Shown here: positions 4,088 to 23,225 of the stretch, piece by piece
Numbering within the stretch: the first letter of the stretch is position 1
How the letters are laid out: each line of letters begins with the position of its first letter
IMG/VR virus record: IMGVR_UViG_3300037067_019009
Location: 128,001-192,000 of that record
Origin: a virus
Lineage: Duplodnaviria; Caudoviricetes
Direction: 5' to 3' (one strand)
Length of the DNA stretch: 64,000 nucleotides
Notes under the pieces: generated by a model
Databases searched by the model: none
What the model was told of the DNA's origin: nothing
What the model saw: the letters and a program-made list of their open reading frames with translations, nothing else
Translations under genes and position numbers: made by a program

Positions 4088-4861
4088 ATGAGTAAAGAGA
4101 TTAACAAGTGGGCTGATTTTTGGTTGGACCGGGAAATCGGAGTTCACGAGTGTGGATTCGTTAAACTCATAGATTATATGGGCGGGGATTCTAGGGTAGT
4201 GGAAGCGGCCAGATGCTCTTTAGGCGGGATGTCTAAACCAACGAGTTCCAAAGAAGACCTTATCCAGTTTTTAATGAAGCACCGGCACCTTTCTCCTTTC
4301 GAGCAGACAGTTCTTACCTTTCAAATAAAGATGCCGATTTTTGTAGCAAGACAGCTAGTAAGGTATAGGACGGGTAGGATAAATGAGCAGTCGGCCAGGT
4401 ATTCTACTCTACCGAAGGAGTTCTATATTCCCGAGCACCTCGTTTCTAAAGACGGTGTGTCGATTGATGCCGACGACGCTAGTATAGTGATATCTACTAT
4501 GGAGGACGATCAAGACGAGACGGCCAGAAGCTACGAGTTCTATTTGGATTTGGGACTGGCCAGGGAACAGGCCAGGATAAACCTACCGGTTTCTACCTAT
4601 ACCACTATGATGTGGCAGATGGATCTTCGTAATCTTTTCCACTTCTTAGAGCAGAGGTTAAGCAGGCATGCCCAAAAAGAGATAAGGGACTATGCCGATG
4701 TCATAGGCTACCTGACTTGCGCGGTGGCTCCGTTATCCTACGCGGCGTTCACCGAACATGTCCTTCACTCCGTGACCCTTTCTGAAAACGAAGTAAAGAA
4801 CTTATATACAGCCCTATCCGAGGCTGGACTTAATCCAAGCTCCTTCGGGCTGGGGGTATAG
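4088..4861 (+). CDS. thyX: FAD-dependent thymidylate synthase
   Basis: HLSPFE, PIFVARQLVRYR-x7-SARY, EQARINLP, NLFHFL..RL..HAQKEIR motifs. Confidence 0.93.
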   Translation: MSKEINKWADFWLDREIGVHECGFVKLIDYMGGDSRVVEAARCSLGGMSKPTSSKEDLIQFLMKHRHLSPFEQTVLTFQIKMPIFVARQLVRYRTGRINEQSARYSTLPKEFYIPEHLVSKDGVSIDADDASIVISTMEDDQDETARSYEFYLDLGLAREQARINLPVSTYTTMMWQMDLRNLFHFLEQRLSRHAQKEIRDYADVIGYLTCAVAPLSYAAFTEHVLHSVTLSENEVKNLYTALSEAGLNPSSFGLGV

Positions 4862-7745: not shown

Positions 7746-8279
7746 GTGGTTGTGCTAGAAGATTTTCACGCTGTTACACATGTAACTGATGCAGGGGAAG
7801 TGGATATGGATATTAAGTTTACTGACACGGTAGATCCTAGTGGGTGGCCTGTAATATTGCTTTGGTATAAAGTTCTAGGTGTCTGGGTGTTGAACAGGCC
7901 CGAGTTTACTGAGTGTGAGCCTGAAACTCTAGAGCTTGCTGGTTCGGTCGTATGTGCCCCAGATAATAAACACCACCTGCTTTTTTGGTATCGTCCGAAT
8001 GGTGGAGGTTGGAGATATGCTATCGGGGAGTGGTCGTTTGTTGGTGGAGCGGATTGTCACTGGACCTCACTACCAGTTCCTATAGGAAAGAACGGCTACA
8101 TACGCACTACAGCCAATTTAGAAGAGTTGCGTGCTAAGACATGCATGTGTGGCAGATGCCAGGTAACTGTCGATGTTGGGGAGAATACTACCATACAGTT
8201 TTCCGGATTGATAAAGAGCGTAATGCCGCTAGAAATACTGATAATCGAAGACCCCACGTGGATAATGGAGGAGAGTTAA
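7746..8279 (+). CDS. Hypothetical protein (true start probably ATG 7807)
   Basis: Trp-rich beta-type ORF; GGGGAAG SD precedes ATG 7807. Confidence 0.6.
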   Translation: MVVLEDFHAVTHVTDAGEVDMDIKFTDTVDPSGWPVILLWYKVLGVWVLNRPEFTECEPETLELAGSVVCAPDNKHHLLFWYRPNGGGWRYAIGEWSFVGGADCHWTSLPVPIGKNGYIRTTANLEELRAKTCMCGRCQVTVDVGENTTIQFSGLIKSVMPLEILIIEDPTWIMEES

Positions 8280-8280
8280 A

Positions 8281-8892
8281 TTGGATATTTCCATAGATGT
8301 TGAACTGCTGGCAGTTCCTCCGGCTGAACTTACTAGTAACACTGAACGAAAAGACTGGGAAGGGTTCATATCGAGCTGGACGCTGGTGGACGCTAAGGAG
8401 GGAGCATGCTCCTGGGTAAAGGGCGACCTGGTGTCGGAGTTGCTGGTAACATTCGGCAACGAAAAGGGCCCCGATGGAGACACACCCCTCGAGAAGTTCG
8501 CCGTGGATATAGGCGTCAGGTCAAGAACCCTGAAACAGTATGCATGGGTGTCGCAAACATTCCCATCCAGAGGAGATAGGATGTTTGAAAATCTGAGCTG
8601 GAGCCACTTCAGAGCATGTGTGGCTGCTGAAAACCCGATGAGCTGGATAGAAAAAGCCAGCCAAGATGGCTGGTCGGTGGCAAGACTGACTGAGGAAATA
8701 AAGAATGCTACAGATAACCAAGCAGTCACGGATGGAATTCCGTGTACCTATTGCCAGGGGATGTTGCCGGAGTCCGGGTCCCTTCACCTAAGAAGGGATA
8801 ACCATACTGTAGGTAGTTACTGCAGCTGGAAATGTTTGCTTGCCTTCGGTCTCATACAGTGTAAGGAGGAGGATGCCGCGGAGTCATGCTAA
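8281..8892 (+). CDS. LmbU-like DNA-binding protein with C-terminal zinc finger
   Basis: SWVKGD, TLKQYAWVSQTF, LSWSHF, WIEKA..DGWSVARL motifs; CTYC...YCSWKC at the C-terminus. Confidence 0.6.
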   Translation: MDISIDVELLAVPPAELTSNTERKDWEGFISSWTLVDAKEGACSWVKGDLVSELLVTFGNEKGPDGDTPLEKFAVDIGVRSRTLKQYAWVSQTFPSRGDRMFENLSWSHFRACVAAENPMSWIEKASQDGWSVARLTEEIKNATDNQAVTDGIPCTYCQGMLPESGSLHLRRDNHTVGSYCSWKCLLAFGLIQCKEEDAAESC

Positions 8893-9416
8893 GAAACTTT
8901 GATGACGGTGAGAATAATGAATTTTTAAACGATCTAGGCGGCTTGGGAAACGATGAGTTGCTGGAGATTCCTATGGCGGGTCTCCCTGCCGATAGTACCG
9001 GAGATGAGTCCGGTGGTGATACGGTGAGCTTGTATACTGATGGGCTGGAAGATATGCCGAGATTTTCCCTCGGTCAGGTGGATGACTTTAACGATGAGTT
9101 TACTGATGAGGACTCGGATACTATGGAGAGGTTGAGTTTGTGGCTTGAGTGCCCGGCCTGTAATGATCCAAACACCATATGTCAGAAGGAGTTCGAGCAT
9201 TATTATAAAGTAGGTATGGCGAGAATATTTTATTTGTGCCATACGATTGCGACTATGATATCAGGGTCCAGAGCCGCGCTGAATCACATGGGAGCAGACA
9301 CAAGAGGAGATCTGGACCTCAGTATACTCTCCTCAATAGGAGAACTCAACCACATAAAGACTCTCATGCCGAAGTTGCTGGCCGCACAGGAGGAGCTTGA
9401 TTCCGATGCGCAGTAG
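8886..9416 (+). CDS. Acidic hypothetical protein
   Basis: D/E-rich N-terminal half, CPAC motif, AGGAGG SD. Confidence 0.65.
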   Translation: MLRNFDDGENNEFLNDLGGLGNDELLEIPMAGLPADSTGDESGGDTVSLYTDGLEDMPRFSLGQVDDFNDEFTDEDSDTMERLSLWLECPACNDPNTICQKEFEHYYKVGMARIFYLCHTIATMISGSRAALNHMGADTRGDLDLSILSSIGELNHIKTLMPKLLAAQEELDSDAQ

Positions 9417-9855
9417 ATATGTTTTGGGCTTTCTATTTAGCGATGATGGAGATGGCGTGCTTCTTCTTAGGAAGGCCAGGCCTGAGTGGCAGGAGGGCAA
9501 CTATAATGGCATAGGAGGCCATATAGAAGAAGTAGAAACCGATATCGAGGCGATGAGAAGAGAGTTCGCCGAAGAGACTGGGGTGTGGCCCGAAGGTATA
9601 GAGTGGGAGCCGACCATCATACTAGATGGTCCGGACTTCATAGTATATTGCTATCGCGCCTACAGCTCCGAGCTGATATCCATAGTGGATGGAAACACGA
9701 CTAACATGCATGATGAGCCTGTGGAGTTCTGGCCCATAGACCATCTACCTGAAAACAGGATACCCAATCTGGTGTGGTTGATTGAGATGTCTAATGATCA
9801 CGGTGGAATAGCTTTCCCGGTGATCGTCAGCTACAACGAGTATCAGGAAGGCTAG
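9397..9855 (+). CDS. Nudix hydrolase
   Basis: Canonical Nudix box GGHIEEVETDIEAMRREFAEETGV. Confidence 0.9.
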   Translation: MIPMRSRYVLGFLFSDDGDGVLLLRKARPEWQEGNYNGIGGHIEEVETDIEAMRREFAEETGVWPEGIEWEPTIILDGPDFIVYCYRAYSSELISIVDGNTTNMHDEPVEFWPIDHLPENRIPNLVWLIEMSNDHGGIAFPVIVSYNEYQEG

Positions 9856-9858
9856 TAA

Positions 9859-10842
9859 ATGCCAAAGAGCGCGTTGATAACTGGGATTACTGGCCAGGAC
9901 GGTTCTTACCTGGCGGAGTTGCTACTGGATAGAGGCTATGATGTGCATGGCCTTGTTCGTAGATCTTCAAGTTTCAATACTGCAAGGATAGACCACATTT
10001 ATAACTCTATAGAGAAACACTATGGAGATTTGACTGATGCTTGTGGGCTTAATAACTTAGTGTCAGATATTATGCCGAATGAGCTGTATAACTTCGGTGC
10101 GCAAAGCCATGTTAAGGTTAGTTTTGATGTTCCTGTTTATACTACGGAAAGCATAGCGATAGGAACTCTAAATCTTCTGGAAATAGTAAGAAGATATCCA
10201 AGCATAAAGCTTTATCAAGCATCTTCCTCAGAAATGTTTGGTTCTTCGCCTCCCCCTCAAAATGAGGGTACTCAGTTTTTACCACAAAGTTCCTATGCGT
10301 CCGCAAAAGTAAATGCTTATCATAATGCTAGGTTGTACAGAGAAGCATATGGATTATTTATTTGTAATGGAATACTGTTCAACCATGAAAGCGAGCGGAG
10401 AGGTGGAACTTTTGTTACTCGTAAGGTTACACGCGCCGCCACAAGAATCAAGTTGGGTTTGCAGGATAAGCTACTCTTAGGAAACTTGGAAGCTAAACGA
10501 GACTGGGGCCACGCAAAGGATTATGTAAAGGCCATGTATCTCATGATGCAGCATGACACACCCGATGACTTTGTTATAGCTACCGGAGAATCGCATTCGG
10601 TACAAGAGTTGGTGGAGTATGCCTTTGATTTATGCGAGTTGGACTGGAAAGAATACGTCGAGATTCACCATGATTTTGTAAGACCTGCAGATGTGAACTA
10701 CTTGTGCGGGGACTACTCCAAAGCTAAGAGGGTCTTAGGCTGGGAACCTACTGTAGACTTTTATACTCTTATAAAAAGTATGGTAGCTTGTGATATGGCC
10801 CTTGCTAGAAATGAAAAGCTTATAAGGGAGGCTGTTTCCTAG
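9859..10842 (+). CDS. gmd: GDP-mannose 4,6-dehydratase
   Basis: [64 protein letters not shown]. Confidence 0.97.
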
Positions 10843-11789
10843 TGAAGCAAAGAGTGTTATTGACTGGGGCAGGTGGGCTGCTTGGGTCAGCTATACAGCG
10901 AGTAGCTAGCAAGTTCGCTGACTTGGAAATAGTTCTGGTGACAAGAAAAGATGTAGACCTGCTTGATCTGGCGGCCGTTAGGGAGTTTTATGCTACGTGT
11001 CTTCCCATTGACACCGTAATACACTGCGCTGCCGTGTGTTCTGGTCTAGAGGCTAATATAGCATCACCCACATCCCTGCTATACGATAACATAGTTATTG
11101 ATAGAAATACCATAGTTACAGCAGACTCTTTTAATATTAGTAATCTTTTGTACATGAATAGTTCTAGCATATATCCTTTTGGTATTTATGATAAAGCTAT
11201 GAAGGAAAAAGACTTATTAACTGGGCCTCCTAGCCCGGAGAATTACGGATATGCTTACGCTAAGATCATAGGCGGGGAGGTTTGCAGGCAGATAACTAAT
11301 AGCAGTAGAGGCACACGCTATTATAAGAGTATAGTTATTGCAAGCCTATATGGTCCGTGCCATAAGTATGAGGGCACTGACGCTCACTTTGTAGTGGCGC
11401 CGATCACTAAAATACGTCAGGCTATGGAAAGCGGAAGTGGTTCTGTAGGCATTTGGGGGGATGGTAGTAATAGAAGAGAACTGGTTTATGTGGATGATTT
11501 TGCTGAGTATCTTCTTTATCTCTGCAGCAGTCACTTGGTAGAGATTATTCCTCAGTATTTGAATGTAGGAATCAACAAGGATTATTCTGTAACTGATTAC
11601 TATGAGGCGGTAGCCAAGGTGTTTGGGTACACAGGCAATTTTATATATGACACTACTAAGCCGTCAGGATGTAAGCATAGACTGTTGGATTCTACATTAG
11701 CGCTGGAGCGCTACCAGTGGTTTCCTAAGACTTCACTAAATGAAGGTATCAATAAAATATATTCTTATGGTCTTGGAAAAGGAAGGTAA
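10842..11789 (+). CDS. GDP-fucose synthase-like SDR, paralogue 1 (YxxxK intact, epimerase Cys replaced by Ser)
   Basis: GAGGLLG, SSSIYP, PENYGYAYAK, LYGP, IWGDGSNRRE.VYVDD. Confidence 0.85.
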   Translation: MKQRVLLTGAGGLLGSAIQRVASKFADLEIVLVTRKDVDLLDLAAVREFYATCLPIDTVIHCAAVCSGLEANIASPTSLLYDNIVIDRNTIVTADSFNISNLLYMNSSSIYPFGIYDKAMKEKDLLTGPPSPENYGYAYAKIIGGEVCRQITNSSRGTRYYKSIVIASLYGPCHKYEGTDAHFVVAPITKIRQAMESGSGSVGIWGDGSNRRELVYVDDFAEYLLYLCSSHLVEIIPQYLNVGINKDYSVTDYYEAVAKVFGYTGNFIYDTTKPSGCKHRLLDSTLALERYQWFPKTSLNEGINKIYSYGLGKGR

Positions 11790-12378
11790 TCGTTTGTCTA
11801 GAGTTTATGATGATTTGTTCGGACACTCCCCAACGTATGGTCAGTTGTATTACTCTCTGGTAAAAAAATTGCAGCCTAAGTTTGGATTGGAGCTTGGGGT
11901 GGATCGTGGGATGTCTGCTTATGCATATTTGTGTGGGTGCGATGGTATATTAGTCGGAGTAGACCTACTTTCATTGGATGAGCTTTATCCAGATCTTACT
12001 TACAACCCAAAATGGCTCGCTGCTGAGTTTGCTGATCAGTTTATATTCATGAATGGTTCCACTGAAAATGTAGTTCCAACCTTGCATGAGAAGTATGAGT
12101 TTGATTATGTGTATATAGATGCCCATTCGAATGACATTTCCACGTTTGGGGCGTGCGTTGCTCGTGATTTGGGTCTGTGCTATTCTCTAGTTTCTGATAA
12201 AGGACTAATAGTTATAGATGATTATAGCTGGAGTAGGGGGGTGGGGGATGTAATAAATGAATTTAAACACACCCACCCAGAGTGGGTAGAGTTTCATTTC
12301 CAAGATCTAGGTATGGGAAGTCACCAGACTAACGCGGCTCTATTAGCTAGGTATGATTTGCGCGAAGTAATGAAGTAG
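11740..12378 (+). CDS. Class I SAM methyltransferase (Methyltransf_24-like)
   Basis: LELGVDRGMS, FDYVYIDAH, GLIVIDDY. Start uncertain. Confidence 0.8.
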   Translation: MKVSIKYILMVLEKEGNRLSRVYDDLFGHSPTYGQLYYSLVKKLQPKFGLELGVDRGMSAYAYLCGCDGILVGVDLLSLDELYPDLTYNPKWLAAEFADQFIFMNGSTENVVPTLHEKYEFDYVYIDAHSNDISTFGACVARDLGLCYSLVSDKGLIVIDDYSWSRGVGDVINEFKHTHPEWVEFHFQDLGMGSHQTNAALLARYDLREVMK

Positions 12379-12387
12379 GGTTGTGTT

Positions 12388-13185
12388 ATGGAGATAGATG
12401 AACTAGTTGATGCAGCAGATAGGTTAAGGGGCACGATAGTCTGTATGGCTAGAGGTGCTGGCTCAGGACATGTGAGCAGCGCTCTATCTCAGTTGGATAT
12501 CTTAGTGACTCTTTATCTAGGAGGGATATTACGCATTGACTGGAAAGACCCTAAGCATGCCCATAGGGATAGATTTATATTAAGTAAGGGGCACGGTGCG
12601 ATAGGCTTGTATCCAATATTATGTGAAATGGGCCTGATATCATTTGAAGAGCTGCTCAGCTATGGTAAAGAGGGCAGTAAGCTGTGCCCTCATTGCTCGT
12701 CGGTTGTACCTGGCATAGAGGTTTCTACCGGGTCCCTTGGGCACGGATTACCTATAGCTACAGGAATGGCTGAAGCGGCGCATATAAACAATAGTAAGCA
12801 TTTAGTGTGTTGTTTGTTGGGGGACGGAGAGTTATTTGAGGGGTCTAATTGGGAAGCGGCTGCTTATGCTGGGAGCCGGGGACTGAGCAATCTTATGTGT
12901 ATAGTGGATAAGAATAATCAAGGATCTATGGGATTTACTGACACGTCAGATAGACTAGTTACTGACCTACCGAGTACACTTTCCCTAACAGAAAAATTCG
13001 TCTCCTTTGGTTTTGAGGCATATGAGGTTGATGGCCATTCTATAGAAGAGATGTTTGTGTTGTTTAAGTACCTGCGCGACGAGAGAACAGGTAATTGTCC
13101 CATAGTGGTGGCGGCTCACACCATAAAAGGAAAGGGATGCCAGATTATGGAAAACAAGAGGTTTTGGCATGGGAGAGTTCCTTAG
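12388..13185 (+). CDS. Transketolase-like protein, N-terminal ThDP-binding subunit
   Basis: SGHVSS, RDRFILSKGH, STGSLGHGL, LGDGE...N, HTIKGKG...WHG. Confidence 0.93.
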   Translation: MEIDELVDAADRLRGTIVCMARGAGSGHVSSALSQLDILVTLYLGGILRIDWKDPKHAHRDRFILSKGHGAIGLYPILCEMGLISFEELLSYGKEGSKLCPHCSSVVPGIEVSTGSLGHGLPIATGMAEAAHINNSKHLVCCLLGDGELFEGSNWEAAAYAGSRGLSNLMCIVDKNNQGSMGFTDTSDRLVTDLPSTLSLTEKFVSFGFEAYEVDGHSIEEMFVLFKYLRDERTGNCPIVVAAHTIKGKGCQIMENKRFWHGRVP

Positions 13186-14040
13186 ATGCGTGAGGCCTAC
13201 TTTTCTTGTTTGTATGATATCTTCTCAGAAGATGAAAATGTGGTATTTATAACTGCTGATACTGGGTGTACCGCACTTGATAAGATAGCCAATGCGTTTC
13301 CTGGCAGGTTTTTTAATGTGGGAATAGCAGAGCAGCAGATGATTGGCATGGCGGCGGGGCTGGCTTTGGAAGGCTTTACCGTCTATTGCTATGCCATTTC
13401 ACCATTTATAACGTCTAGATGCTATGAGTTTACAAAGCTTGATGTCTGTGTAAACAATCTACCAGTACATCTGGTAGGTCTGGGTTCAGCGCTAACGTAT
13501 ACTGCCATGGGGCCTACCCACCATTCTACTGAGGATATTGGCATCATGCGGGTGTTGCCGAACATGTCGGTGTACTCTCCCATAAATATCGAGACAGTTG
13601 CACCCCTAGCTAGATACGTACACTATAGGAATTGTCCTAGCTACACAAGACTCGAAAAGTCTGGATTACACCTGTATGATCGTACGTCGGAAGGTATGTT
13701 GGAGGACGGGTTTTGTTTAGTTAGTGCTGGTAGAAGTGATGTTTGTGTTATAACAACCGGCCTTTTAGCTAAGTCTGTGGTAGGTAAAGATTATGGGCAC
13801 ATAGATATGTTTAGGTTGTGGCCGGTAAGAGCTGAAAAACTGGTGGCTATATTATCTAACTATAGAGCAGTTATAACTTTAGAAGAAACTCTTCTGCCCG
13901 GTGGGCTAGGAAGTATCATCAGTGAGCTTTTCTGTGACTATGGTGTCAGCACACAACTGATTCGCAAGGGCCTTACTGATTTTATACACGGCTGGTGCAG
14001 CAGAGATAATATATGGTCGGAGAGGTGTTTAGGTGTCTAA
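13186..14040 (+). CDS. Transketolase-like protein, C-terminal subunit
   Basis: RFFNVGIAEQQMIGMAAGLA, GPTHHSTED, YTRL, TLEE..LPGGLGS. Confidence 0.92.
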   Translation: MREAYFSCLYDIFSEDENVVFITADTGCTALDKIANAFPGRFFNVGIAEQQMIGMAAGLALEGFTVYCYAISPFITSRCYEFTKLDVCVNNLPVHLVGLGSALTYTAMGPTHHSTEDIGIMRVLPNMSVYSPINIETVAPLARYVHYRNCPSYTRLEKSGLHLYDRTSEGMLEDGFCLVSAGRSDVCVITTGLLAKSVVGKDYGHIDMFRLWPVRAEKLVAILSNYRAVITLEETLLPGGLGSIISELFCDYGVSTQLIRKGLTDFIHGWCSRDNIWSERCLGV

Positions 14041-14959
14041 GGTATATGTTGCTGGTCATGCTGGAATGGTGGGATCGGCTGTTGTTAGAAACCTGGCGCG
14101 ATCCGATGAGTTAATAACAATATCCAGGGGACAGCTGGATCTATTAGACTACACCCGTACTTTTAGATTTCTCAAGTCCGAGAACCCCGATATAGTTATT
14201 GTAGCCGCCGCTAGGATTGGTGGTATACAAGAGAATATAGAGAAGCCGGTAGAGTTTCTGTATGACAACGTAGCTATAGGGACTAACCTTATCAAAGGTT
14301 GTTTGGAGAGCGGAGTAACAAAGCTTATTTATATTTGCAGCTCTTGTATGTACCCAAGAAATTATGGGACTACACTTAAGGAAGCAGACCTATTGGCTGC
14401 TCCCTTCGAGCCTACCAATGAAGCACATGCTCTAGCCAAAGTGGTTGGAGCTAGGCTCTGCGAGTACTGTAACAAAGAATATAATACAAGCTACAAAACG
14501 ATAATTTCCTGCAACCTGTATGGCCCAAATGACAACTACTCTCTAGAGCGAAGCCACCTCATGGCTGCAATAATACATAAACTTCATGAGGCTAAGGTCA
14601 ATAACTTACCCATAGTTACTATCTGGTCTGATGGTAGTGCACGCAGGGAGTTTCTTTACGTGGATGACTTAGCCAAGTTCATATGCAAAAATTTATGGTG
14701 TATGGAGAGCTGGCCCGACTATTTAAATATCGGAGCAGGTAAAGATATAAGTGTTGTAGATCTTTACAAGAAGGCAGCAGAGGTTATAGGCTATGCAGGC
14801 AGTTTCGACTTTGACTTAAAAAGGCCTATGGGAATGAGAAGTAAGATGCTGGATTGTAGTTTAGCCACGGAGCTTGGGTGGGAGGTAGCCACTGATTTAG
14901 ACACGGGAATAGCGTTAGCTTATCAAGAGTATCTTTTACAAAGGAGTAGGCAATGGTAA
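14033..14959 (+). CDS. fcl: GDP-L-fucose synthase-like protein, paralogue 2 (epimerase Cys and His present, catalytic Tyr replaced by His)
   Basis: VAGHAGMVGSA, AAARIGGI, SSCMYP, EPTNEAHALAK, NLYGPNDN, SHLM, RREFLYVDD. Confidence 0.85.
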   Translation: MSKVYVAGHAGMVGSAVVRNLARSDELITISRGQLDLLDYTRTFRFLKSENPDIVIVAAARIGGIQENIEKPVEFLYDNVAIGTNLIKGCLESGVTKLIYICSSCMYPRNYGTTLKEADLLAAPFEPTNEAHALAKVVGARLCEYCNKEYNTSYKTIISCNLYGPNDNYSLERSHLMAAIIHKLHEAKVNNLPIVTIWSDGSARREFLYVDDLAKFICKNLWCMESWPDYLNIGAGKDISVVDLYKKAAEVIGYAGSFDFDLKRPMGMRSKMLDCSLATELGWEVATDLDTGIALAYQEYLLQRSRQW

Positions 14960-15921
14960 GGGTAGGTTGCTGGTTTAGTTGGGAGCCGCACATGTTTACT
15001 TCCCCTCGTCCCATGGAAGGGCAGGGCAGGTATCCGGAGGTGGATTTCGATTCTGATGGGTATAGATTCACTTGCTGGAAAAGTTTAGGTGCACCGAGGG
15101 GTGTGGAGTTCATCGATTTTTCTGATGTAAATGATTACTCTACTCTTGATGCTGCGATATATGTGGAGTCTCCGGACTTTAACTCTCCTATTTATAAGGA
15201 AGTCAACTCTCCAAAATTTGTGTATATATCAGAGCCTCCGTGCATAGCTCCAAATAACTGGAGTAAGGCAACACATGACAAGTTTGACTATGTTTTTACT
15301 TCCAACACGGATCTAATAGACGGTAAGAAGTACTTCAGGCATACAGTGGCGCATAGATTTCCCGCTACTGTTCCCCAGGGACTAGAGGGCCGCGACCGTT
15401 TCTGCGTGCTAGTAGCGCACGGAGCGAAATCTTTTGGTGGCCCATCTATCAGCATATACCATGAAAGACATAATACAGCAAATTGGTTTTCTATGAATCA
15501 TCCAGAGGAACTAGATCTATACGGCATTGGTTGGCCGGGGTCTAATAGATGCTACAAAGGCGTGATGAATGAGCCTAAGACGGTGGCGTTTCAAAGATAT
15601 AAGTTCAGCATCTGTTACGAAAACACTAAAGATTTTCCCGGTTACGTCACGGAGAAGCTGCACCACTCACTAATAGCTGGGTGCATCCCTGTTTATTGGG
15701 GGGCTGCAGATGTAGCTAACACAGTACCTACCGAGTGTTTTATAGATAGAAGAAACTTTTCTAATCATGAGGAACTCTACAGTTTTTTGCACAGCATTAC
15801 GGATGAGGATTACATGCGCTATCAAAAAGCCATAGCGGCCTATATACTAGATCCAGGAAATATATACAAAGCTGAAAATAATGCCAGCTACATGATAGAT
15901 GTGCTGTTAGATAGAGTATAG
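14953..15921 (+). CDS. GT10-family (alpha-1,3/4-fucosyltransferase-like) glycosyltransferase
   Basis: GT10 signature YKFSICYEN...GYVTEKL..SL.AGCIPVYWG; EPP motif. Confidence 0.88.
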   Translation: MVRVGCWFSWEPHMFTSPRPMEGQGRYPEVDFDSDGYRFTCWKSLGAPRGVEFIDFSDVNDYSTLDAAIYVESPDFNSPIYKEVNSPKFVYISEPPCIAPNNWSKATHDKFDYVFTSNTDLIDGKKYFRHTVAHRFPATVPQGLEGRDRFCVLVAHGAKSFGGPSISIYHERHNTANWFSMNHPEELDLYGIGWPGSNRCYKGVMNEPKTVAFQRYKFSICYENTKDFPGYVTEKLHHSLIAGCIPVYWGAADVANTVPTECFIDRRNFSNHEELYSFLHSITDEDYMRYQKAIAAYILDPGNIYKAENNASYMIDVLLDRV

Positions 15922-15931
15922 GAAAATTAGA

Positions 15932-16495
15932 GTGAAGAATAGGAATACTTCTACAACACTACATTACTGTTTCAACTTGTACCCCAAGTACTATGAGGCT
16001 TTAGCCGCAGCTGTTAGGTATTTTAAGCCTTTACACGCATTAGAGATCGGGCTGTGGGTTGGGAGGTCAGCTTATGCGCTGCTAAACAACAGTCCCAATA
16101 GTACGTTGATTAGCATAGATCCTGTAAGTCACGAAGAAAGTACCGAGTTCTTGGAGAAAACTTTTCCGGGACGGTTCACTTATCGCCAGGGCTACTCTCC
16201 CGATGCTTTATACACCTTGAGAGGGAAAACTTTTGATTGGGTGTATATAGACGGAGAGCATACCGAGAAAGCTGTAACAGCCGATCTGCTAGGAGTAGTT
16301 CCACTGTTGGATAATGACGGGGTCATAGTGCTGGATGATTACAACATCACTGAAGTTAGGGAGGCGGTGGATATGTTTATGAAAGAGCATGCCGAGAAAA
16401 AATTATACTCTTTTAATGATTTAGGGTTTAGTGACTCGGGCTGTCCTTCACAAATTGTAGCTATCGTGGGTAAGGAGAGAGCTTTTGAATTATAA
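15932..16495 (+). CDS. Class I SAM methyltransferase (Methyltransf_24-like)
   Basis: LEIGLWVGRS, FDWVYIDGEH, GVIVLDDY. Confidence 0.85.
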   Translation: MKNRNTSTTLHYCFNLYPKYYEALAAAVRYFKPLHALEIGLWVGRSAYALLNNSPNSTLISIDPVSHEESTEFLEKTFPGRFTYRQGYSPDALYTLRGKTFDWVYIDGEHTEKAVTADLLGVVPLLDNDGVIVLDDYNITEVREAVDMFMKEHAEKKLYSFNDLGFSDSGCPSQIVAIVGKERAFEL

Positions 16496-17252
16496 CGAGC
16501 ATTCATTACTGGTTTCAGATATGGCGGATTACCTTAATATTTCTAGAGAGTACGTGCAAAAGTTGGTGAACGAGACTGCGTCTGCCTATGATAATAAAGA
16601 TCTCTGTGGAATAGCCACACAATGGAGGTGGATGTTTGGAGACCGTACTGGGTCTACAGATGAGTATCGTTACTTCTATGCTACGAATTTCTTATATCTA
16701 TTTGACCTGATTGGATTTGCTGGATGTTTTGATCCCAATTTGGGGCAAATACATAAGTACGCGAAGGGGAGGTGCTTAGACTATGGGAGTGGTATTGGCA
16801 CGGTAGCCCTTTGGTTAAGGGAACAACCAGGCATCTCAGACGTACATGCTATAGATGTGGCTGTCACACTTAACGACTTTCTGCGCTGGAGAGCGCGTAA
16901 GCACGGATTGGATATTGTGGTTTTAGACCCTATGGATAATTCAGAAAATAAACGTTTGCCACATAAGTCCCTGCGGGGGCAGTATGACTTTATATACGCT
17001 AGGGATGTATTTGAGCACGCCTGTGACCGGTTGGAGATACTACAAAGCCTAATGGAACATACTTCTCCTGGTGGGATTATTTGTGAGTCCAGTCCCATAT
17101 GGGATTTCGAAGCCATATGCAAACAGGATATTGCCATAAAGGATTATGACATTTGGGATCTGTTCAAAGATAAGGGATTTACTTTGGTGACTGAAAGCCG
17201 TACCCCATACATTTTCGCACCAGTATTTACTAAGTGCTGGAGGAAACCTTAG
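16485..17252 (+). CDS. Class I SAM methyltransferase
   Basis: LDYGSGIG, YDFIYARDVFEH, PGG. Confidence 0.85.
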   Translation: MNYNEHSLLVSDMADYLNISREYVQKLVNETASAYDNKDLCGIATQWRWMFGDRTGSTDEYRYFYATNFLYLFDLIGFAGCFDPNLGQIHKYAKGRCLDYGSGIGTVALWLREQPGISDVHAIDVAVTLNDFLRWRARKHGLDIVVLDPMDNSENKRLPHKSLRGQYDFIYARDVFEHACDRLEILQSLMEHTSPGGIICESSPIWDFEAICKQDIAIKDYDIWDLFKDKGFTLVTESRTPYIFAPVFTKCWRKP

Positions 17253-17998
17253 TGAGGATAGCTCTTTGTTTATCGGGTCAGCCTAGACTGCTGGAGGAGC
17301 AGTTCCCCTTTATAAAGTCCGCGATACTAGACTATGGCGGTGTAGATGTGTTTGCACACGCTTGGTACAATCCAGAAAACGCAGGTAACCACTACGAGCA
17401 TGCTCTGTGGCATAAGAGTTTTCCTGGTAGAACTGGAGGCATAGAGAAGTTTGGTGTAGATAAGGCCATACTGGATCTGTATAATCCGGTATCCTATGTC
17501 ATTGAGCCACAAGTAGATTTTACTAAGCAAGCAAAGACCTGCATGTCTCTGGTACACGCAAGAGGAGGCTGTTTATATAGTGATAGTTACAAGGTTTTTA
17601 CCTGCCCTTTAAGCATGTTTTACTCCATGTATAAGGTGTGCAATATCAAGAAAAGTTACGAGGAGGCAGGCGGGTTTGTTTATGACGTGGTGGTGCGTAG
17701 TAGATTTGATATGCACATACCTAAGCCCATCCCATTTAATAGTCTGGACTACTCAGTGATTTCTACGCCACTTACTATATGGACGCCCCGAGGAGGGGCT
17801 TGTGATCTATTGGGGGTTGGAACTTCACCTAACATGGATATTTATTGCGGAGTTTACCCCAATTTTGAAAGTTTGTGCGAAACTGCGGATATGTCTCTAC
17901 CGGAACCATGGGGCACTGAGTTCTTGCTGGCACAGCATCTAAACAAGCATAGTATTAGGATTTCCCCGTGTATTCCAGGAAGTAACGCTAACCCCTAA
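17252..17998 (+). CDS. Putative glycosyltransferase (IALCLSGQPR type)
   Basis: RIALCLSGQPR, DVFAHAW, SMFYS, YDVVVRSRFD motifs. GTG start after GGAGG SD. Confidence 0.65.
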   Translation: MRIALCLSGQPRLLEEQFPFIKSAILDYGGVDVFAHAWYNPENAGNHYEHALWHKSFPGRTGGIEKFGVDKAILDLYNPVSYVIEPQVDFTKQAKTCMSLVHARGGCLYSDSYKVFTCPLSMFYSMYKVCNIKKSYEEAGGFVYDVVVRSRFDMHIPKPIPFNSLDYSVISTPLTIWTPRGGACDLLGVGTSPNMDIYCGVYPNFESLCETADMSLPEPWGTEFLLAQHLNKHSIRISPCIPGSNANP

Positions 17999-17999
17999 T

Positions 18000-18009
18000 G
18001 GGGGGGGGG
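18000..18009 (+). repeat. G10 homopolymer inside a 9-codon bridging mini-ORF, bracketed by CCAGGAAGTAA direct repeats
   Basis: Repeats at 17975-17985 and 18017-18027. Confidence 0.7.
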
Positions 18010-18026
18010 AGGGAAACCAGGAAGTA

Positions 18027-18386
18027 ATGGATTATCCAAAGACTATATTTCTTGATATTGATGGCTGTGTATTAAAGCATGCCTCCGGTGTGCGTTCTAA
18101 TATAGAGGCTCCACCAACCTTACTACCAGGAGTGCTTGAGAAGCTCACTGAATGGGATGCTAAAGGTTATAAGATAGTGCTTACTACAGGTCGTAGAGAA
18201 AGTGAGCGAAGCATTACAGAGAAACACCTTAGTCAGCTGGGGGTATTCTATGATTGTCTATTGATGTCTTTGCCTAGAGGGCAGCGGGTAGTAATTAATG
18301 ATGCAAAGCCTGATCATACAGGCGAACTTACAGCGTGGGGTGTTACGATTGAGAGGGATGCCGGCTTAGCGGGAGTATGCGTTTAA
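18027..18386 (+). CDS. HAD-family phosphatase (minimal, capless)
   Basis: FLDIDG, LTTGR and IND motifs. Confidence 0.85.
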   Translation: MDYPKTIFLDIDGCVLKHASGVRSNIEAPPTLLPGVLEKLTEWDAKGYKIVLTTGRRESERSITEKHLSQLGVFYDCLLMSLPRGQRVVINDAKPDHTGELTAWGVTIERDAGLAGVCV

Positions 18387-18411
18387 GCATAAGTTACTAG
18401 GAGAGAAGCGC

Positions 18412-18762
18412 ATGATAGTAGTTGTAAAGATGTGGGGGTTAGAGGAGGTAGTAGAGACAAATCCCAAATACACTTTGAAACGCATAACTATGCATTCTGG
18501 TAAAAGGTGCAGTCTTCAGTACCATGAAGTTAAAACTGAGACTATTTATAATATCAGTGGGACACTGCTTGTTACTATTGAGGGAGTGGAGCATACTTTG
18601 TCTCCTGGGGATTATTGTACTATATTGCCAGGGGAGATCCATAGAATGTCGGCGGTAGAAGGGAATTGTGTATATATCGAAGCATCTACTAGTGAATTAG
18701 GCGATGTCGTTAGATTAGAGACTGATTATCCTGGAGCGGATGTAGACTATGCTAATTCATAA
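18412..18762 (+). CDS. Cupin, sugar-isomerase-like
   Basis: KMWG.E, SLQYHEVKTET, PGEIHR, EAST..L.DVVRL. Confidence 0.8.
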   Translation: MIVVVKMWGLEEVVETNPKYTLKRITMHSGKRCSLQYHEVKTETIYNISGTLLVTIEGVEHTLSPGDYCTILPGEIHRMSAVEGNCVYIEASTSELGDVVRLETDYPGADVDYANS

Positions 18763-20332
18763 AACTCCCACTGTACTTATAACTACATCCGGTACTGGAT
18801 CCAGACTTGGAGAGCTTACAAGCTACACTAATAAGTCGTTGGTGCGTGTCGGCTGTAAACCAGCGCTCTCTTATATAATAGAGTCTTATCCTAATGCCCA
18901 CTTCGTAATAACTCTCGGTTATAAGGGAGACCTAGTAAAGCAGTATATAGAAGTTGCACACCCGGGCGTAGATGTTACATATGTAACGGTAAATAACTAC
19001 GAGGGTCCGGGGTCCAGCTTGGTACACTCTATGCTGGCTGCTAGGCGCTACCTACAAGAACCTTTTATCTTTCATGCTGGAGATACAATAGTGTCTCCTC
19101 CGTCCACCGATGTTGCGTATAACTGGGTAGCAGCTGGTCCTAAAGCCGACTCTAGCGTGTATAGAACTCTTGTCGTTAAACATCTACGTACCGGAACTAA
19201 ACTTGTGTCCGTGGCAGAGAAGGGAAGCCTGTTTCCCGCTCCTTCTCATATAGGAGTGGTGGGTATTTATGAGTATGATTCTTTCTGGAAAGAAGCAGAA
19301 GCCTTAGCGTGCGCAGCGGCAGACAGTTCACTATCTGACGCACATGTTATAAATGCCATGCTATCAGCAGGGGCTGAGTTTGCAGTGTTGGGTGGCTGTA
19401 ACGATTGGTTGGATATAGGTAATGCCCACTCACTAGAAGAAGCCAGAGCATGTATACCAGATCGTATGGATAACCTGGATAAGGTAGATCAGTCTGTCTA
19501 TATAGTAGGTGACCGGGTTGTAAAGTTTTTCTCGGAGGAGAAAAGTAACCGGAACCGAGTAGAGAGGGCAAACATGTTAGCCGGTGTTATACCGGATATC
19601 CTAGGCTCTACTAAGAATTTCTTTTCTTATAGAAAAGCAGAGGGAAGTTTACTAGATTCTTCCATGTATCCATATGAGATGGAGGATTTTTTAGCTTGGT
19701 GCAAAGAGTGTCTTTGGATTCCACTTAACCCGCAGCCGCCTGATATACAACCATTGTGTACTAAGTTTTACAAGGCTAAAACACTTTCCAGAATAGCAGA
19801 TTTTTATGATAAAGCACACGTTGCAGATACTTCTGAGAGTATAAATGGTATCCTAGCCGACTCGTTGGCTTGTTATCTTAATGATCTGGACTGGGATAGA
19901 GTTACAAGTGGGATAGCTACTGAAAGATTTCATGGCGATTTACACTTCTCTAACGTGTTTTCTACGAATGAGGGATATAAACTGATAGACTGGAGAGAAG
20001 ATTTTGCTGGTGAGCTTGGCTATGGAGATGTCTATTATGATTTAGCTAAGTTGAATCATGGAATGATTGTTTCGCATACGATAGTGAAGAATAACTTATT
20101 TTCTATAGAAAATACTCCTGGTGGGATTTACTATGATATGTGCAGACCACATCGATTGGTTGCATGCCAGAAAGAGTTCTATTCCTTCTTAGAGAAAGAG
20201 GGGTATGATGTGTGGAAAGTAGACGTAATAACAGCTCTTATCTTTTTAAATATATGCTCTCTTCATCACTCCCCGTATGATATGTTTCTTTATTACCTGG
20301 GAAAAGATATGCTCAGGCAGGAGGTATCGTAA
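18749..20332 (+). CDS. Bifunctional NTP-sugar nucleotidyltransferase plus APH/choline-kinase-like phosphotransferase
   Basis: N-terminal SGTGSRL...NKSL and WLDIGN; C-terminal FHGDLHFSN, LIDWR, YYDLAKL. Confidence 0.82.
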   Translation: MLIHKTPTVLITTSGTGSRLGELTSYTNKSLVRVGCKPALSYIIESYPNAHFVITLGYKGDLVKQYIEVAHPGVDVTYVTVNNYEGPGSSLVHSMLAARRYLQEPFIFHAGDTIVSPPSTDVAYNWVAAGPKADSSVYRTLVVKHLRTGTKLVSVAEKGSLFPAPSHIGVVGIYEYDSFWKEAEALACAAADSSLSDAHVINAMLSAGAEFAVLGGCNDWLDIGNAHSLEEARACIPDRMDNLDKVDQSVYIVGDRVVKFFSEEKSNRNRVERANMLAGVIPDILGSTKNFFSYRKAEGSLLDSSMYPYEMEDFLAWCKECLWIPLNPQPPDIQPLCTKFYKAKTLSRIADFYDKAHVADTSESINGILADSLACYLNDLDWDRVTSGIATERFHGDLHFSNVFSTNEGYKLIDWREDFAGELGYGDVYYDLAKLNHGMIVSHTIVKNNLFSIENTPGGIYYDMCRPHRLVACQKEFYSFLEKEGYDVWKVDVITALIFLNICSLHHSPYDMFLYYLGKDMLRQEVS

Positions 20333-21117
20333 TGCCTAGTTTGGTTTCTATAATAGTGCCGTGTTTTAACTGCGCGGAGTTTTTACCAGATCTGGTAGAA
20401 AGCATACACAACCAAACCTATAAAAACTGGGAGCTAATCCTAGTAGACGACAACAGCACGGATAAATCTTCTATAGAGACGGAGACGGGCCTAATTGACA
20501 AATACTGCAGTGAAAATAGGGGCCTGGTTATACAAAGAGATACCAATGAGTTTATGACCAGAGCTAAAGAGACTGGTAGGCAGGAAGCGTGTGGGGACTA
20601 TATGCTCTACGTAGACCCAGACGATAAACTATTACCCACCTTTCTTAGCAAAACTGTTAGTCTGTTGGACGCAGAAGAGGATATAGTAGTAGCTTATACC
20701 AATTACCAGTGCTTTGGGGGCACTAACGCAATTATACACCAAAGTGATTTTTCGGTAGAACTTCTAAAAAGAGGATGTATAATTACAAGTTGTAGTTTAT
20801 TTAGAAGAGCTGCATTGGATCATGCTATCGATGCGGGGTATCGCTATGATTATTGTAGAAATATTGGTGGAGAGGATTGGGACTTCTGGTTAACCTTAGC
20901 GGAACTTGGATACACCGCTAAAAGAATACCGGAGGTATTATTTCTTTACAGAAGACATCCGGGGCAGTCTATTAATAGGGTAGACATGAACTGTCTTCCT
21001 TACTTAATATTAAGGCATCCACAGCTATATTCAGAGGCAGAGGGTGCTGGAGCTAGGCAGTATATGGCGTATAAGCATCCGGAAGAGCTAGCTAGTAGCA
21101 GGCCTTTAATACAGTGA
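20332..21117 (+). CDS. GT2 glycosyltransferase
   Basis: VSIIVPCFN, VDDNSTD, VDPDD, EDWDFW, YRRH. Confidence 0.92.
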   Translation: MPSLVSIIVPCFNCAEFLPDLVESIHNQTYKNWELILVDDNSTDKSSIETETGLIDKYCSENRGLVIQRDTNEFMTRAKETGRQEACGDYMLYVDPDDKLLPTFLSKTVSLLDAEEDIVVAYTNYQCFGGTNAIIHQSDFSVELLKRGCIITSCSLFRRAALDHAIDAGYRYDYCRNIGGEDWDFWLTLAELGYTAKRIPEVLFLYRRHPGQSINRVDMNCLPYLILRHPQLYSEAEGAGARQYMAYKHPEELASSRPLIQ

Positions 21118-21776
21118 AAGCATTTGTAAATAACTTCAACCACTTTACATGGACTAAAAGTCTTGTAGAAAATTTATACAGGCTTGGCGCGGAGCCGGTA
21201 ATTGTGGATAATGCATCTACCTATCCTCCTCTAATAGAGTGGTATGATTCTACCCCCTGTGAGATTATAAGATTAGAGACCAACACAGGCCACCTGGCTC
21301 CATGGAGTAGCGGTTCAGTAAATAGAATAGCTACTGGGTACTACATAGTGACGGACTCAGATCTAGATATCTCAGAGGTTCCTAACGATACTGTATCGCA
21401 TCTTATTGATGGCTACAATAAACATAAGGTAGTGAAGTGTGGGTTAAGTATAAGAATAGACGATCTTCCTGAAACTAAGATGGGGCAGGTGGCAAGAACT
21501 TGGGAAGCACATTTTTGGGCAAGGCCTACAGGAGATGGGTTCTTTCATGCAGACATAGATACTACTTTTGCTGTATACCATAAGGATAAAGAACCCACAC
21601 GGGTGTATCCGGCTTTGCGTGCTAATTCTCCATATACAGCTAGACACATGCCCTGGTATATTACTCCACATAATATTACTGAGGAGTTTGAGTATTTTAT
21701 GGCTACTACAAGTAAGAGTGAGACTTCTTCATGGAATGAATTAGTAGCTACTATTTATGAAGGGAGTAACGAATGA
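21114..21776 (+). CDS. GT-A/GT2-like glycosyltransferase (paralogue of 22540-23214)
   Basis: IVDNASTYPPL, TDSD, DTTFA, ARHMPWY. Confidence 0.8.
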   Translation: MKAFVNNFNHFTWTKSLVENLYRLGAEPVIVDNASTYPPLIEWYDSTPCEIIRLETNTGHLAPWSSGSVNRIATGYYIVTDSDLDISEVPNDTVSHLIDGYNKHKVVKCGLSIRIDDLPETKMGQVARTWEAHFWARPTGDGFFHADIDTTFAVYHKDKEPTRVYPALRANSPYTARHMPWYITPHNITEEFEYFMATTSKSETSSWNELVATIYEGSNE

Positions 21777-22540
21777 AAACACTCGTAGCTACAACTCTAT
21801 GGGTGCCGGATAGGGCAGAGTTTAGGTTAAGGTTGGTTACTCGCCACCTAGAGCATTTAGGACTATATACTGGGGATTGGGATTTGCACATTGTTGATAA
21901 CTGCGGAATCCTTGCAGATGAAGTATCTGCTGTTACACGTGCAGCGGAAGATTGTGGAAGACTAGTAACACTGAACTGCAGGTACGACAATCCTGGGTGG
22001 TGTACAGCTAGGAATCTTGCGCTTACTAGATTCTGGGAGGGTAATTATGACCAGATTATTTTGATGGACTGCGACTCCTGGTGCACCGATCTATCATGGA
22101 TAGAACTAGCTCAAGGGGCATCTAAGCTGCTCCCGGCGTACACACTTATATTCCCCGGTTCATATATACAGGGGACCTGCTATATAGGAGAGTTCAGATT
22201 CGAGGTAGTCAGGGATTGGTACGGGAATGTAAACGTTTTAACCAGAGACGCCGTTGCTACGGTTGGTGGTTATGATGGTGTGACCTATCCTTGGGCGTGG
22301 GGTTTTCATGACCTTGATTATGGAGTACGCCTCAAGAAAGCTGGTATGTTGTCTAAAGCAGGTAATCGATATTTGTCGCTTTGCGCTGGGTGCTCTGACG
22401 AGCACGATGAAGAGTACACACAAAAGCTGGCCACCATCAAAGGAGAGATTAGCCGTAAATCTTTTGTATTTTTTGATAGAGTGAGGAAGATAGAGCGTGG
22501 AGAAGCTCCGGTGTTCGTTGACTACAGAGTGTTACCGTAA
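21773..22540 (+). CDS. GT-A glycosyltransferase (GT2/GT7-like)
   Basis: IVDN, ARNLAL, MDCD, VGGYD...WGFHDLDY. Confidence 0.8.
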   Translation: MKTLVATTLWVPDRAEFRLRLVTRHLEHLGLYTGDWDLHIVDNCGILADEVSAVTRAAEDCGRLVTLNCRYDNPGWCTARNLALTRFWEGNYDQIILMDCDSWCTDLSWIELAQGASKLLPAYTLIFPGSYIQGTCYIGEFRFEVVRDWYGNVNVLTRDAVATVGGYDGVTYPWAWGFHDLDYGVRLKKAGMLSKAGNRYLSLCAGCSDEHDEEYTQKLATIKGEISRKSFVFFDRVRKIERGEAPVFVDYRVLP

Positions 22541-23214
22541 TGATGCCGGTCATCATAAATAATCGAGACCGTTTAGTGTGGCCTAAGGCCATGATAGGCG
22601 AGATTCAACGGATGGGTGATGTTCATATTATTATTGTGGATAACGCATCCACCTACCCACCGCTACTGGAGTGGTACGTTTCTGCTCCGTGTGAGGTGGT
22701 CATGCTCAAAGATAATCTAGGTCCTCGAGCGCCTTGGACGTCAGGTGTTATTTCTGGACTGACGAAGGATGTTTATATAGTAACGGATCCTGATCTGGAC
22801 CTCTCTGGCCTGCCCGCCAATACTATAGCCTATTTAGATAATGGTCTTAGCAAGCCGGGAGTATGGAAAGTGGGATTGTCCCTGAGACTTGATGATCTAC
22901 CAAATACTTCTATAGCTAACGCGGCTAAGAACTGGGAGCAGAGATTTTGGGGGTGCTACACTGGCGATGGTTACTATGTGGCTCCGGTAGATACCACGTT
23001 TGCCTTGTATAATCGAAAGACAGTACCGGAGGATATAGGGGGCTTTATAAACGGAGCTCTCAGGGCCGCACCCCCGTATTCAGCAAGGCACTTGCCCTGG
23101 TACCTTACGCCAGATACCGTGACGGAGGAGGAAAAACACTATTTATCCGCGGCCACATGCGGAACCTCAGGTTCCTTTTGGAACCAGAGTATAAAAAACA
23201 TTCTTGGTGTTTAA
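22540..23214 (+). CDS. GT-A/GT2-like glycosyltransferase (paralogue of 21114-21776)
   Basis: IVDNASTYPPL, TDPD, DTTFA, ARHLPWY. Confidence 0.8.
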   Translation: MMPVIINNRDRLVWPKAMIGEIQRMGDVHIIIVDNASTYPPLLEWYVSAPCEVVMLKDNLGPRAPWTSGVISGLTKDVYIVTDPDLDLSGLPANTIAYLDNGLSKPGVWKVGLSLRLDDLPNTSIANAAKNWEQRFWGCYTGDGYYVAPVDTTFALYNRKTVPEDIGGFINGALRAAPPYSARHLPWYLTPDTVTEEEKHYLSAATCGTSGSFWNQSIKNILGV

Positions 23215-23225
23215 TAATTTTGGAT

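Follow-up and report, generated by a model that had tools for sequence, protein, structure and literature searches.

The 64,000-base stretch of DNA analysed here (the window) comprises bases 128001-192000 of a 212,668-base IMG/VR virus record, IMGVR_UViG_3300037067_019009, for which CheckV estimates a completeness of 84%. Within it lies a sugar operon in which the gene for Gmd, a GDP-mannose 4,6-dehydratase, is followed by two genes of the Fcl family, the GDP-L-fucose synthases (GFS, also named GMER or WcaG), standing on either side of a two-gene transketolase-like enzyme of the thiamine diphosphate (ThDP) type. Each of the two Fcl-like enzymes is substituted at a different catalytic residue. 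The arrangement suggests, and does not prove, that an uncommon sugar of the fucose type is made, perhaps one with a branched carbon chain. The explanation that we favour, tentatively and as somewhat less likely than not, is that GDP-fucose synthesis is diverted at the 4-keto stage for the tailoring of a GDP-sugar, with ThDP-dependent formation of a carbon-carbon bond included. New here are the observations that differently substituted Fcl enzymes flank a transketolase, that Fcl-like short-chain dehydrogenases/reductases (SDRs) without the catalytic tyrosine recur in neighbouring transketolase clades, and that in related phages an epimerase, a transketolase and an SDR follow each other in that order.

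Two differently substituted Fcl-like enzymes

Both paralogues are full-length and collinear with known GFS enzymes (structures 1BWS, 1E6U and the human 4BKP), carry the glycine-rich NADP motif of that family, and stand in the Gmd-Fcl-GT10 setting typical of phage fucose cassettes. They differ from GFS in that each is without one of the five catalytic residues and that both fall under the cut-off of the equivalog model NF047922 (Table 1). Aligned to the E. coli enzyme 1BWS (E 1e-52), paralogue 1 reads NSSSIYP in place of GSSCIYP, with Ser109 (codon AGC, 11166-11168) at the position of the E. coli Fcl Cys109. Its reduction triad is intact in the same alignment (S107, Y137 and K141; YAYAK, 11250-11264), and H182 aligns with E. 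coli His179, so that the Cys109/His179 epimerisation dyad is incomplete, half of it being lost with Ser for Cys and the His retained. An intact Ser/Tyr/Lys triad combined with a residue other than Cys at position 109 is the pattern of the reductase-only enzymes of the DdahC/MlghC type, and the S109/H182 pair of paralogue 1 corresponds to T110/H180 of DdahC. The two are nevertheless not close, as the matches of paralogue 1 to the C. jejuni GFS-annotated chains 7ANC and 7M13, which we take to be DdahC/MlghC, reach an E value of about 1e-27; moreover, the Campylobacter enzymes use GDP-heptoses and pair with RmlC-type cupin epimerases, whereas the phage is without RmlC and its Gmd is of the hexose type.

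Paralogue 2, aligned to the solved GFS 8DU0 (E 2e-77), reads NEAHALAK against NEAYAIAK, and His132 (codon CAT, 14426-14428) occupies the Tyr136 position. The enzyme keeps S103, C105 (SSCMYP), K136, H175 (RSHL) and the glycine-rich motif; its Cys109/His179 dyad is complete and its Ser/Tyr/Lys triad is broken at the Tyr only. At the catalytic motifs the alignments leave no ambiguity. These residues and codons agree exactly with those given in an earlier sequence-only reading of this DNA, which had also correctly placed the split transketolase between the paralogues and the GT10 gene next to them (a Methyltransf_24 gene intervenes as well). The same reading described the catalytic losses as complementary, which overstates the case for paralogue 1, where His179 is kept and only half of the dyad is lost.

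As was pointed out there, each substituted codon is one base away from the canonical one (AGC and TGC; CAT and TAT), a distance that a sequencing or assembly error could also bridge. Both proteins are present, with identical residues at these sites, in three assemblies of different source (JGI, 212 kb; Logan, 80 kb; ENA, 3 kb), one of which is a distinct variant: the ENA copy of paralogue 2 differs by A249E, and His132 is found in all three. The conservation comparison proposed in the earlier reading was carried out, and the substitutions proved to be rare. The other viral Fcl genes recovered in two IMG/VR scans read S/T-C-Y-K-H without exception (161/161), and Tyr136, Cys109, Lys140 and His179 are invariant in the 119 nearest homologues of paralogue 2. 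Because the substitutions are absent from both sets and the same in three assemblies, they are not a matter of chance or of error, and we give the latter explanation practically no weight.

The two substitutions differ in their history. In the wider Fcl family it is not unusual for the Cys to be lost: among the 149 cluster representatives closest in similarity to paralogue 1, it is missing from 31 (Ala in 14, Ser in 7, Thr in 3, others in the remainder). The sister of paralogue 1 in the FastTree phylogeny, P0279 (support 1.0), also has Ser at 109, together with Tyr at the His179 position, and Ser109 is an old feature of this small clade. Loss of the Tyr is rarer, the cluster representatives including seven Phe forms and one Gln form, with six of the Phe forms keeping Ser, Cys, Lys and His; no other case of His at this position was seen among the homologues and cluster representatives compared. 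The relatives with which paralogue 2 clusters in the tree, P0004 and P0005 (support 0.91), both have Tyr, and His132 of paralogue 2 is a recent change in this phage lineage.

Set among viral Fcl loci, the window operon is an elaboration of the usual phage module, which consists of Gmd and a canonical Fcl, sometimes with a GT10. Gmd is present in 114 of these loci and a transketolase in only 3, in 24 of 160 a GT10 is found in the company of Gmd and a canonical Fcl, and a second Fcl-like gene occurs in a single locus (L288), where both copies are canonical. Besides Gmd, the substituted paralogues are the only extended SDRs in the phage record, three in all, and neither an RmlC-type epimerase (dTDP_sugar_isom) nor a DegT was found in it. 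The record therefore encodes no fully equipped GDP-fucose synthase.

A non-canonical split transketolase and its gene neighbours

The transketolase-like enzyme consists of two proteins, TK-N and TK-C. By alignment to 6YAK and to human transketolase 3MOS, TK-N keeps H28, H69, H102, the GDG motif (D146), N176 and H261 (WHG); by alignment to 6YAJ, TK-C keeps R2 (R358), the cofactor glutamate E49 (E411) and H112 (H473), where the positions in brackets follow E. coli TktA numbering. The ThDP motif, the cofactor-activating Glu and the catalytic histidines of canonical transketolase (EC 2.2.1.1) are all present. Replaced in TK-C are S385 (C28), H461 (G100), D469 (M108) and R520 (K158), so that the five sugar-phosphate or substrate contacts R358, S385, H461, D469 and R520 read R, C, G, M and K, three of them being lost. 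Across 27 canonical split transketolases, His stands at H461 in every case, and Asp at D469 and Arg at R520 in nearly all. The highest score on an NCBIfam transketolase model, 219.5 bits, falls short of the cut-off of 488; this is weak evidence, as a half-length protein is here compared with a full-length model.

The sets of related loci were picked by similarity, and the counts drawn from them are associations, not unbiased frequencies. TK-C genes in 117 loci divide into 27 with the canonical H...D signature and 90 without it, and when 166 loci are placed in a concatenated tree, the 30 canonical ones are nearly monophyletic. Of the non-canonical loci, 44 have an extended SDR at most 6 kb from the transketolase, while none of 22 canonical loci does, and the same all-or-none pattern is displayed by DegT (23 loci), B12-radical SAM (14), Methyltransf_24 and Zn-ADH (10 each), and RmlC, APH kinase, NTP transferase and the sugar transferase Bac_transf (9 each). 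By these comparisons the window transketolase belongs to a non-canonical class that is tied to nucleotide-sugar genes, and appears not to be a pentose-phosphate enzyme; the class spans glycan loci of phages and of many bacterial phyla. The closest TK-N homologues (P0155, P0163 and others) are 53-55% identical to the window protein. Scans of genomes, metagenomes and viral contigs for relatives gave a best identity of 51% or less, and when TK-N and paralogue 1 were each used singly to scan viral contigs, there were no matches.

Two further groups of transketolase-like genes were noted along the way. One is a separate non-canonical subclass with the TK-C signature RNEGLHK, seen in bacterial loci from metagenome-assembled genomes (L020, L021, L024, L038, L064, L065, L075, which is Akkermansia muciniphila, and L077); as examples of its neighbours, L020 has a Zn-ADH, L021 an APH kinase, L064 a SIS isomerase and L038 a methyltransferase, and the subclass probably serves a different pathway. 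The other is the viral contig L109, where two transketolase-like pairs (7918-10044 and 11590-12712) stand among radical SAM genes and the TK-C of one pair is short.

If the window enzyme were instead an auxiliary metabolic gene, it would serve pentose-phosphate flux, or provide fructose 6-phosphate or sedoheptulose 7-phosphate to the activation module downstream, with no link to the Fcl-like enzymes. Such a role would agree with the PMI-like cupin, HAD phosphatase and NTP-transferase/APH-like kinase at 18027-20332, with the small cupins homologous to the window's that adjoin TK-N directly on its 5' side in the phage loci L086 and L089, and with the APH kinases, NTP transferases and SIS isomerases of some non-canonical transketolase loci. 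It is hard to reconcile with the replacement of three of the five contacts (H461 by Gly, D469 by Met, S385 by Cys) and the Lys at R520, with a score far under the NCBIfam cut-off, and with the separate, nearly monophyletic position of the canonical split transketolases, which have nucleotide-sugar neighbours in none of 22 loci. We consider this explanation very improbable. Activity on sugar phosphates only was also the outcome that the sequence-only reading had named as fatal to its proposal, and here the degenerate site makes the sequence speak against a pentose-phosphate role. A heptose route, with the transketolase supplying sedoheptulose 7-phosphate, was set aside in view of the degenerate sugar-phosphate site and of Gmd passing the hexose equivalog model. 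A donor of glycolyl units like QncN/L or NapB/D was considered and set aside as well, the cluster being without a lipoyl/E2 or carrier-protein gene.

Gene order in related loci repeats parts of the window operon. The window transketolase forms a clade (support 1.0) with those of L084, L128 and L096; the transketolase closest to it is preceded by a 4,6-dehydratase-like gene. L084 has the order Fcl-like gene, 4,6-dehydratase-like SDR, TK-N, TK-C, GT2-like and GT47-like genes; its Fcl-like gene (8093-9064) was read as two open reading frames of 176 and 130 aa, which may be due to faulty assembly, to a frameshift or to a stop codon within the gene. L096 begins with a methyltransferase and an Fcl-like gene, followed by TK-N, TK-C and a glycosyltransferase. 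A group of phage loci (L098, L099, L103, L105 and L107) shares the order RmlC-type epimerase, TK-N, Methyltransf_24, TK-C, UXS/RmlB-like SDR and DegT, followed directly by Gmd except in L103; the methyltransferase of L103 is TylF-like, and in L107 it comes after the SDR instead. Their Gmd proteins are 52-56% identical to that of the window, within a range of 51-56% for the other transketolase-carrying phage loci. L108 has a canonical Fcl, TK-N, TK-C and an SDR. A non-reducing epimerase, then a transketolase, then an SDR is thus a recurring layout. A Methyltransf_24 or TylF-like gene lies within or beside the transketolase pair in L098, L099, L102, L103, L105, L107 and L109, and GT10 homologues also occur in the transketolase loci L097, L100, L106 and L110. 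As a separate observation, such a methyltransferase gene interrupts the TK-N/TK-C pair itself in L098 and L099 (about 10760-11330 in both), L102, L103, L105 and L109 (8654-9157).

A hidden Markov model search of all transketolase loci revealed twelve further Fcl/GME-like SDRs that have the Lys and are without the Tyr (GVGWTK, PGWAK, IGLVK and similar motifs). They are located in L085, L086, L104, L130, L142, L145 and L156, all seven of which belong to transketolase clades adjacent to that of the window, and the Tyr-to-His change of paralogue 2 looks like an independent arrival at the same Tyr-less state. Two of these loci also contain a miniature two-gene ThDP enzyme, whose E1_dh-like part has about 220 aa and whose Transket_pyr-like part has about 180 aa (L104, 8773-9989; L085, 4275-5416), both genes of which flank Tyr-less Fcl-like SDRs, besides an ordinary split transketolase pair; loci of this type would hold a second, smaller ThDP enzyme. 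Only the E1-like gene of the miniature pair was seen in L096 (3748-4422).

The proposed route and the evidence that bears on it

In the route that we propose, Gmd would make GDP-4-keto-6-deoxy-D-mannose, being by its model scores a bona fide hexose-type GDP-mannose 4,6-dehydratase. Paralogue 2, with Cys and His intact, would epimerise C3 and C5, the Tyr-to-His change slowing or removing hydride transfer so that the 4-keto group persists, and the transketolase-like enzyme would add a ThDP-bound two-carbon unit to the keto sugar, producing a tertiary alcohol. Paralogue 1, with Ser/Tyr/Lys intact and Ser for Cys, would carry out the remaining NADPH reduction, after which the TylF-like methyltransferases would methylate the product and GT10 and the downstream GT2 enzymes would transfer the sugar to a phage or host glycan. 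In its most specific form this would be the first transketolase-type branching pathway, found in a phage, with a C2 unit placed on GDP-4-keto-6-deoxy-L-galactose between a Tyr-less epimerase and a Cys-less reductase, and a methylated C-branched analogue of L-fucose attached by GT10 to the virion or host surface; taken as a whole, that form is possible but doubtful.

The logic resembles that of yersiniose A biosynthesis by YerE/YerF, in which an NDP-4-keto-6-deoxyhexose undergoes ThDP-dependent C2 addition to the ketone and SDR reduction. YerE differs in belonging to the decarboxylase (AHAS-like) ThDP superfamily and in using pyruvate and CDP-sugars, whereas the phage enzyme is a split transketolase in a GDP-sugar context, matching Transketolase_N and Transket_pyr in Pfam and not TPP_enzyme_N/M/C. 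The miharamycin and amipurimycin transketolases, together with 13 Streptomyces candidates (PMC12247030), are likewise two-gene enzymes placed by context in keto-sugar branching (hydroxyacetyl transfer); they come from actinomycete antibiotic clusters as opposed to a phage glycan operon, and were compared by description. YerE is an established case of ThDP-dependent branching on a 4-keto NDP-sugar, and split-gene transketolases have been proposed to do the same (PMC12247030).

Published mutants and homologues bear on the proposed division of labour. In GFS, the Cys is the base for both C3 and C5 epimerisation, and in the human enzyme C116A and H186A are inactive, while C116S lowers kcat about 1000-fold; in Y143F, reduction is about 100-fold slower and hydride transfer becomes rate-limiting, with epimerisation little affected (PMC12362431). 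C. jejuni DdahC (T110/H180) and MlghC (Y108/R180) are Fcl-homologous C4 reductases without epimerase activity (PMC7949155). In the light of these data it is reasonable to assign reduction to paralogue 1 and to regard paralogue 2 as an epimerase whose reducing step is crippled, and a division of labour between them is plausible.

Several points weigh against the route. Human GFS Y143F keeps about 3% of its activity and yields GDP-fucose only, and C116S still epimerises C3, its products being about 70% a D-altro sugar and 30% GDP-fucose (PMC12362431). The D-altro product is printed as GDP-D-altrose (PMC12362431), which we read as the 6-deoxy form arising by C3 epimerisation and then premature reduction; a matching result for E. 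coli C109S by Lau and Tanner (2008) is available as cited by PMC8787198. Judged by these mutants, neither substitution would be a clean loss of function. Paralogue 1, which retains His179, need not be reductase-only, and the His of paralogue 2 may donate protons better than Phe plus water does, which would make this enzyme perhaps a slow fucose synthase. The epimerase-only and reductase-only labels of the sequence-only reading were sound as to the residues assigned to each step and too clean as to function. Gene context adds that canonical Fcl genes stand beside the transketolase in L106, L108 and L060, so that a Tyr-less partner is not obligatory, and that in the relatives YxxxK is normal in the SDR immediately following TK-C, whereas in the window the Tyr-less paralogue occupies this place. 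The two paralogues, furthermore, are 37% identical and belong to different sister lineages in the tree. We rejected a recent in-phage duplication with subfunctionalisation on these grounds, each paralogue having its own well-supported sister; complementary losses after duplication, as the sequence-only reading had implied, are therefore not their history, and two distinct Fcl lineages were combined in one operon. Finally, C2 branching is inferred from gene context; the sequence gives no donor, acceptor or attacked carbon, and transketolase branching of a keto sugar has never been demonstrated, having been proposed for miharamycin and amipurimycin only (PMC12247030). In the literature on transketolases in O-antigen, capsule or phage glycan clusters we found nothing beyond that ThDP review. 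To our knowledge, ThDP-dependent branching of keto sugars is proven for YerE-like enzymes alone, and its transketolase version is a hypothesis from two antibiotic clusters. What stands of the branched-sugar route first put forward is a plausible division of labour, the transketolase class, the gene context and the Tyr-less SDRs.

Also among the points that weigh against the route, paralogue 2 deviates at 8 of the 69 columns that are at least 95% conserved, that is, at seven beyond the Tyr site, and its branch is about 1.7 times longer than those of its sisters; both features would also fit decay. Paralogue 2 could accordingly be a copy that is decaying or that catalyses nothing and is a mere pseudoenzyme or scaffold, in which Tyr-to-His is a recent inactivation and the work is left to paralogue 1 and the transketolase. 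The single-base nature of the change, the absence of His here from any homologue and the Tyr of the nearest relatives, P0004 and P0005, agree with this, and purifying selection is not measurable, as the three near-identical sequences of paralogue 2 are too few to gauge it. A decaying gene is, however, at odds with a frame that is intact and translationally coupled on both sides (overlaps of 8 bases with TK-C and 7 bases with GT10), with the retention of S103, C105, K136, H175 and the glycine-rich motif, and with the persistence of the His in the A249E variant strain. It would also leave the phage record without any enzyme having an intact epimerisation dyad, and loss of the Tyr alongside a Cys/His dyad recurs independently, in the six Y-to-F representatives and in the Tyr-less SDRs of transketolase loci. 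Overall we find decay improbable.

A further explanation supposes two ordinary products made in parallel, with the transketolase acting on another intermediate or making a precursor. Paralogue 1 would then act directly on what Gmd makes, as a natural 3-epimerase/4-reductase (yielding GDP-6-deoxy-D-altrose) or a plain 4-reductase (GDP-D-rhamnose, GDP-6-deoxy-D-talose), in accordance with its Ser/His dyad and its position abutting Gmd, and paralogue 2 would be a slow but working GDP-L-fucose synthase feeding GT10, in accordance with the overlap of these two genes, with the company that GT10 keeps in viral Fcl loci and with the residual activity of Y143F GFS. The canonical Fcl genes beside the same transketolase class in L106, L108 and L060 would also be expected. 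This explanation accounts neither for the translational coupling of the transketolase pair between the paralogues, nor for the absence of a canonical Fcl from an operon of a kind in which every other viral copy is canonical, nor for the recurrence of Tyr-less Fcl-like SDRs with this transketolase super-clade. Parallel products seem to us unlikely, if by no means negligible.

The operon in its phage genome and what it would mean

The genes of the operon are collected in Table 1. They form part of a co-oriented block between thyX and the packaging genes, in which most genes abut or overlap. A consensus scan of the + strand over 9397-18200, the span of the genes discussed here, found no strong terminator-like site, and weak matches of 5-6 pairs start at 18227. 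Structural genes follow just downstream of the sugar block, and the source genome is therefore that of a jumbo tailed phage and not of a bacterium; the operon genes are phage genes, carried by an uncultured jumbo tailed phage.

Table 1. Positions of the operon genes and of flanking landmark genes in the window, with the evidence for their annotation.
Feature	Position	Strand	Evidence
thyX	4088-4861		
NUDIX hydrolase	9397-9855	+	Pfam NUDIX E 8e-11; NCBIfam matches generic NUDIX only
Gmd, GDP-mannose 4,6-dehydratase	9859-10842	+	TIGR01472 448 bits (cut-off 415); GDP_Man_Dehyd E 1e-121
Fcl-like paralogue 1 (P0001, 315 aa)	10842-11789	+	NF047922 212 bits (211.9), cut-off 500
Methyltransf_24 (TylF-like) S-adenosylmethionine (SAM) methyltransferase, directly before TK-N	11740-12378	+	PF13578 E 5e-7
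TK-N, ThDP/PP-domain half of split transketolase-like enzyme	12388-13185	+	Transketolase_N E 7e-29
TK-C, Pyr-domain half of split transketolase-like enzyme	13186-14040	+	Transket_pyr; alignment to 6YAJ
Fcl-like paralogue 2 (P0002, 308 aa)	14033-14959	+	NF047922 324 bits, cut-off 500
GT10-family (fucosyltransferase-like) glycosyltransferase	14953-15921	+	Glyco_transf_10 E 2e-14
Methyltransf_24 SAM methyltransferase	15932-16495	+	Pfam
Methyltransf_23/12/11 SAM methyltransferase	16485-17252	+	Pfam
HAD phosphatase, PMI-like cupin, nucleotidyltransferase fused to APH-like kinase	18027-20332		
Large terminase	26248-27918		
Portal	29941-31587		
Major head protein	35736-36899		
Tail sheath	41321-43213		

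The GT10 enzyme is likely the user of an L-configured GDP-sugar, and the NUDIX protein at the head of the operon is possibly a Gmm-like GDP-sugar hydrolase. The methyltransferases are followed by an unannotated gene, by the module of HAD phosphatase, cupin and nucleotidyltransferase-kinase, and by several GT2-type genes; the module may provide a mutase-free route to GDP-mannose or another NDP-sugar. Its cupin weakly matches GMP-PMI in the C-terminal isomerase portion. An open reading frame of 203 aa (8281-8892) that lies upstream of the operon has weak matches to the LmbU family of transcriptional regulators (E 9e-10, below cut-off) and to DUF1016_N. The G+C content of the glycan block (10001-24000) is 0.41-0.45, against 0.46-0.50 in the downstream structural genes, which fits acquisition of the block from elsewhere.

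Should both paralogues make ordinary 6-deoxyhexoses, the operon would be a modest variation on phage fucose cassettes. For the branching route, it represents a compact natural test case, with a cheap and defined substrate (GDP-mannose), no fully equipped fucose synthase, and two Fcl variants that mark the steps before and after the transketolase. If the route is true, the large class of 'transketolase' genes in phage and bacterial glycan loci would for the first time have a function, and the recurring Tyr-less Fcl-like SDRs would be explained; it would also offer a further biocatalyst for hydroxylated tertiary alcohols and show that phages, or surfaces which they modify, carry a new sugar.

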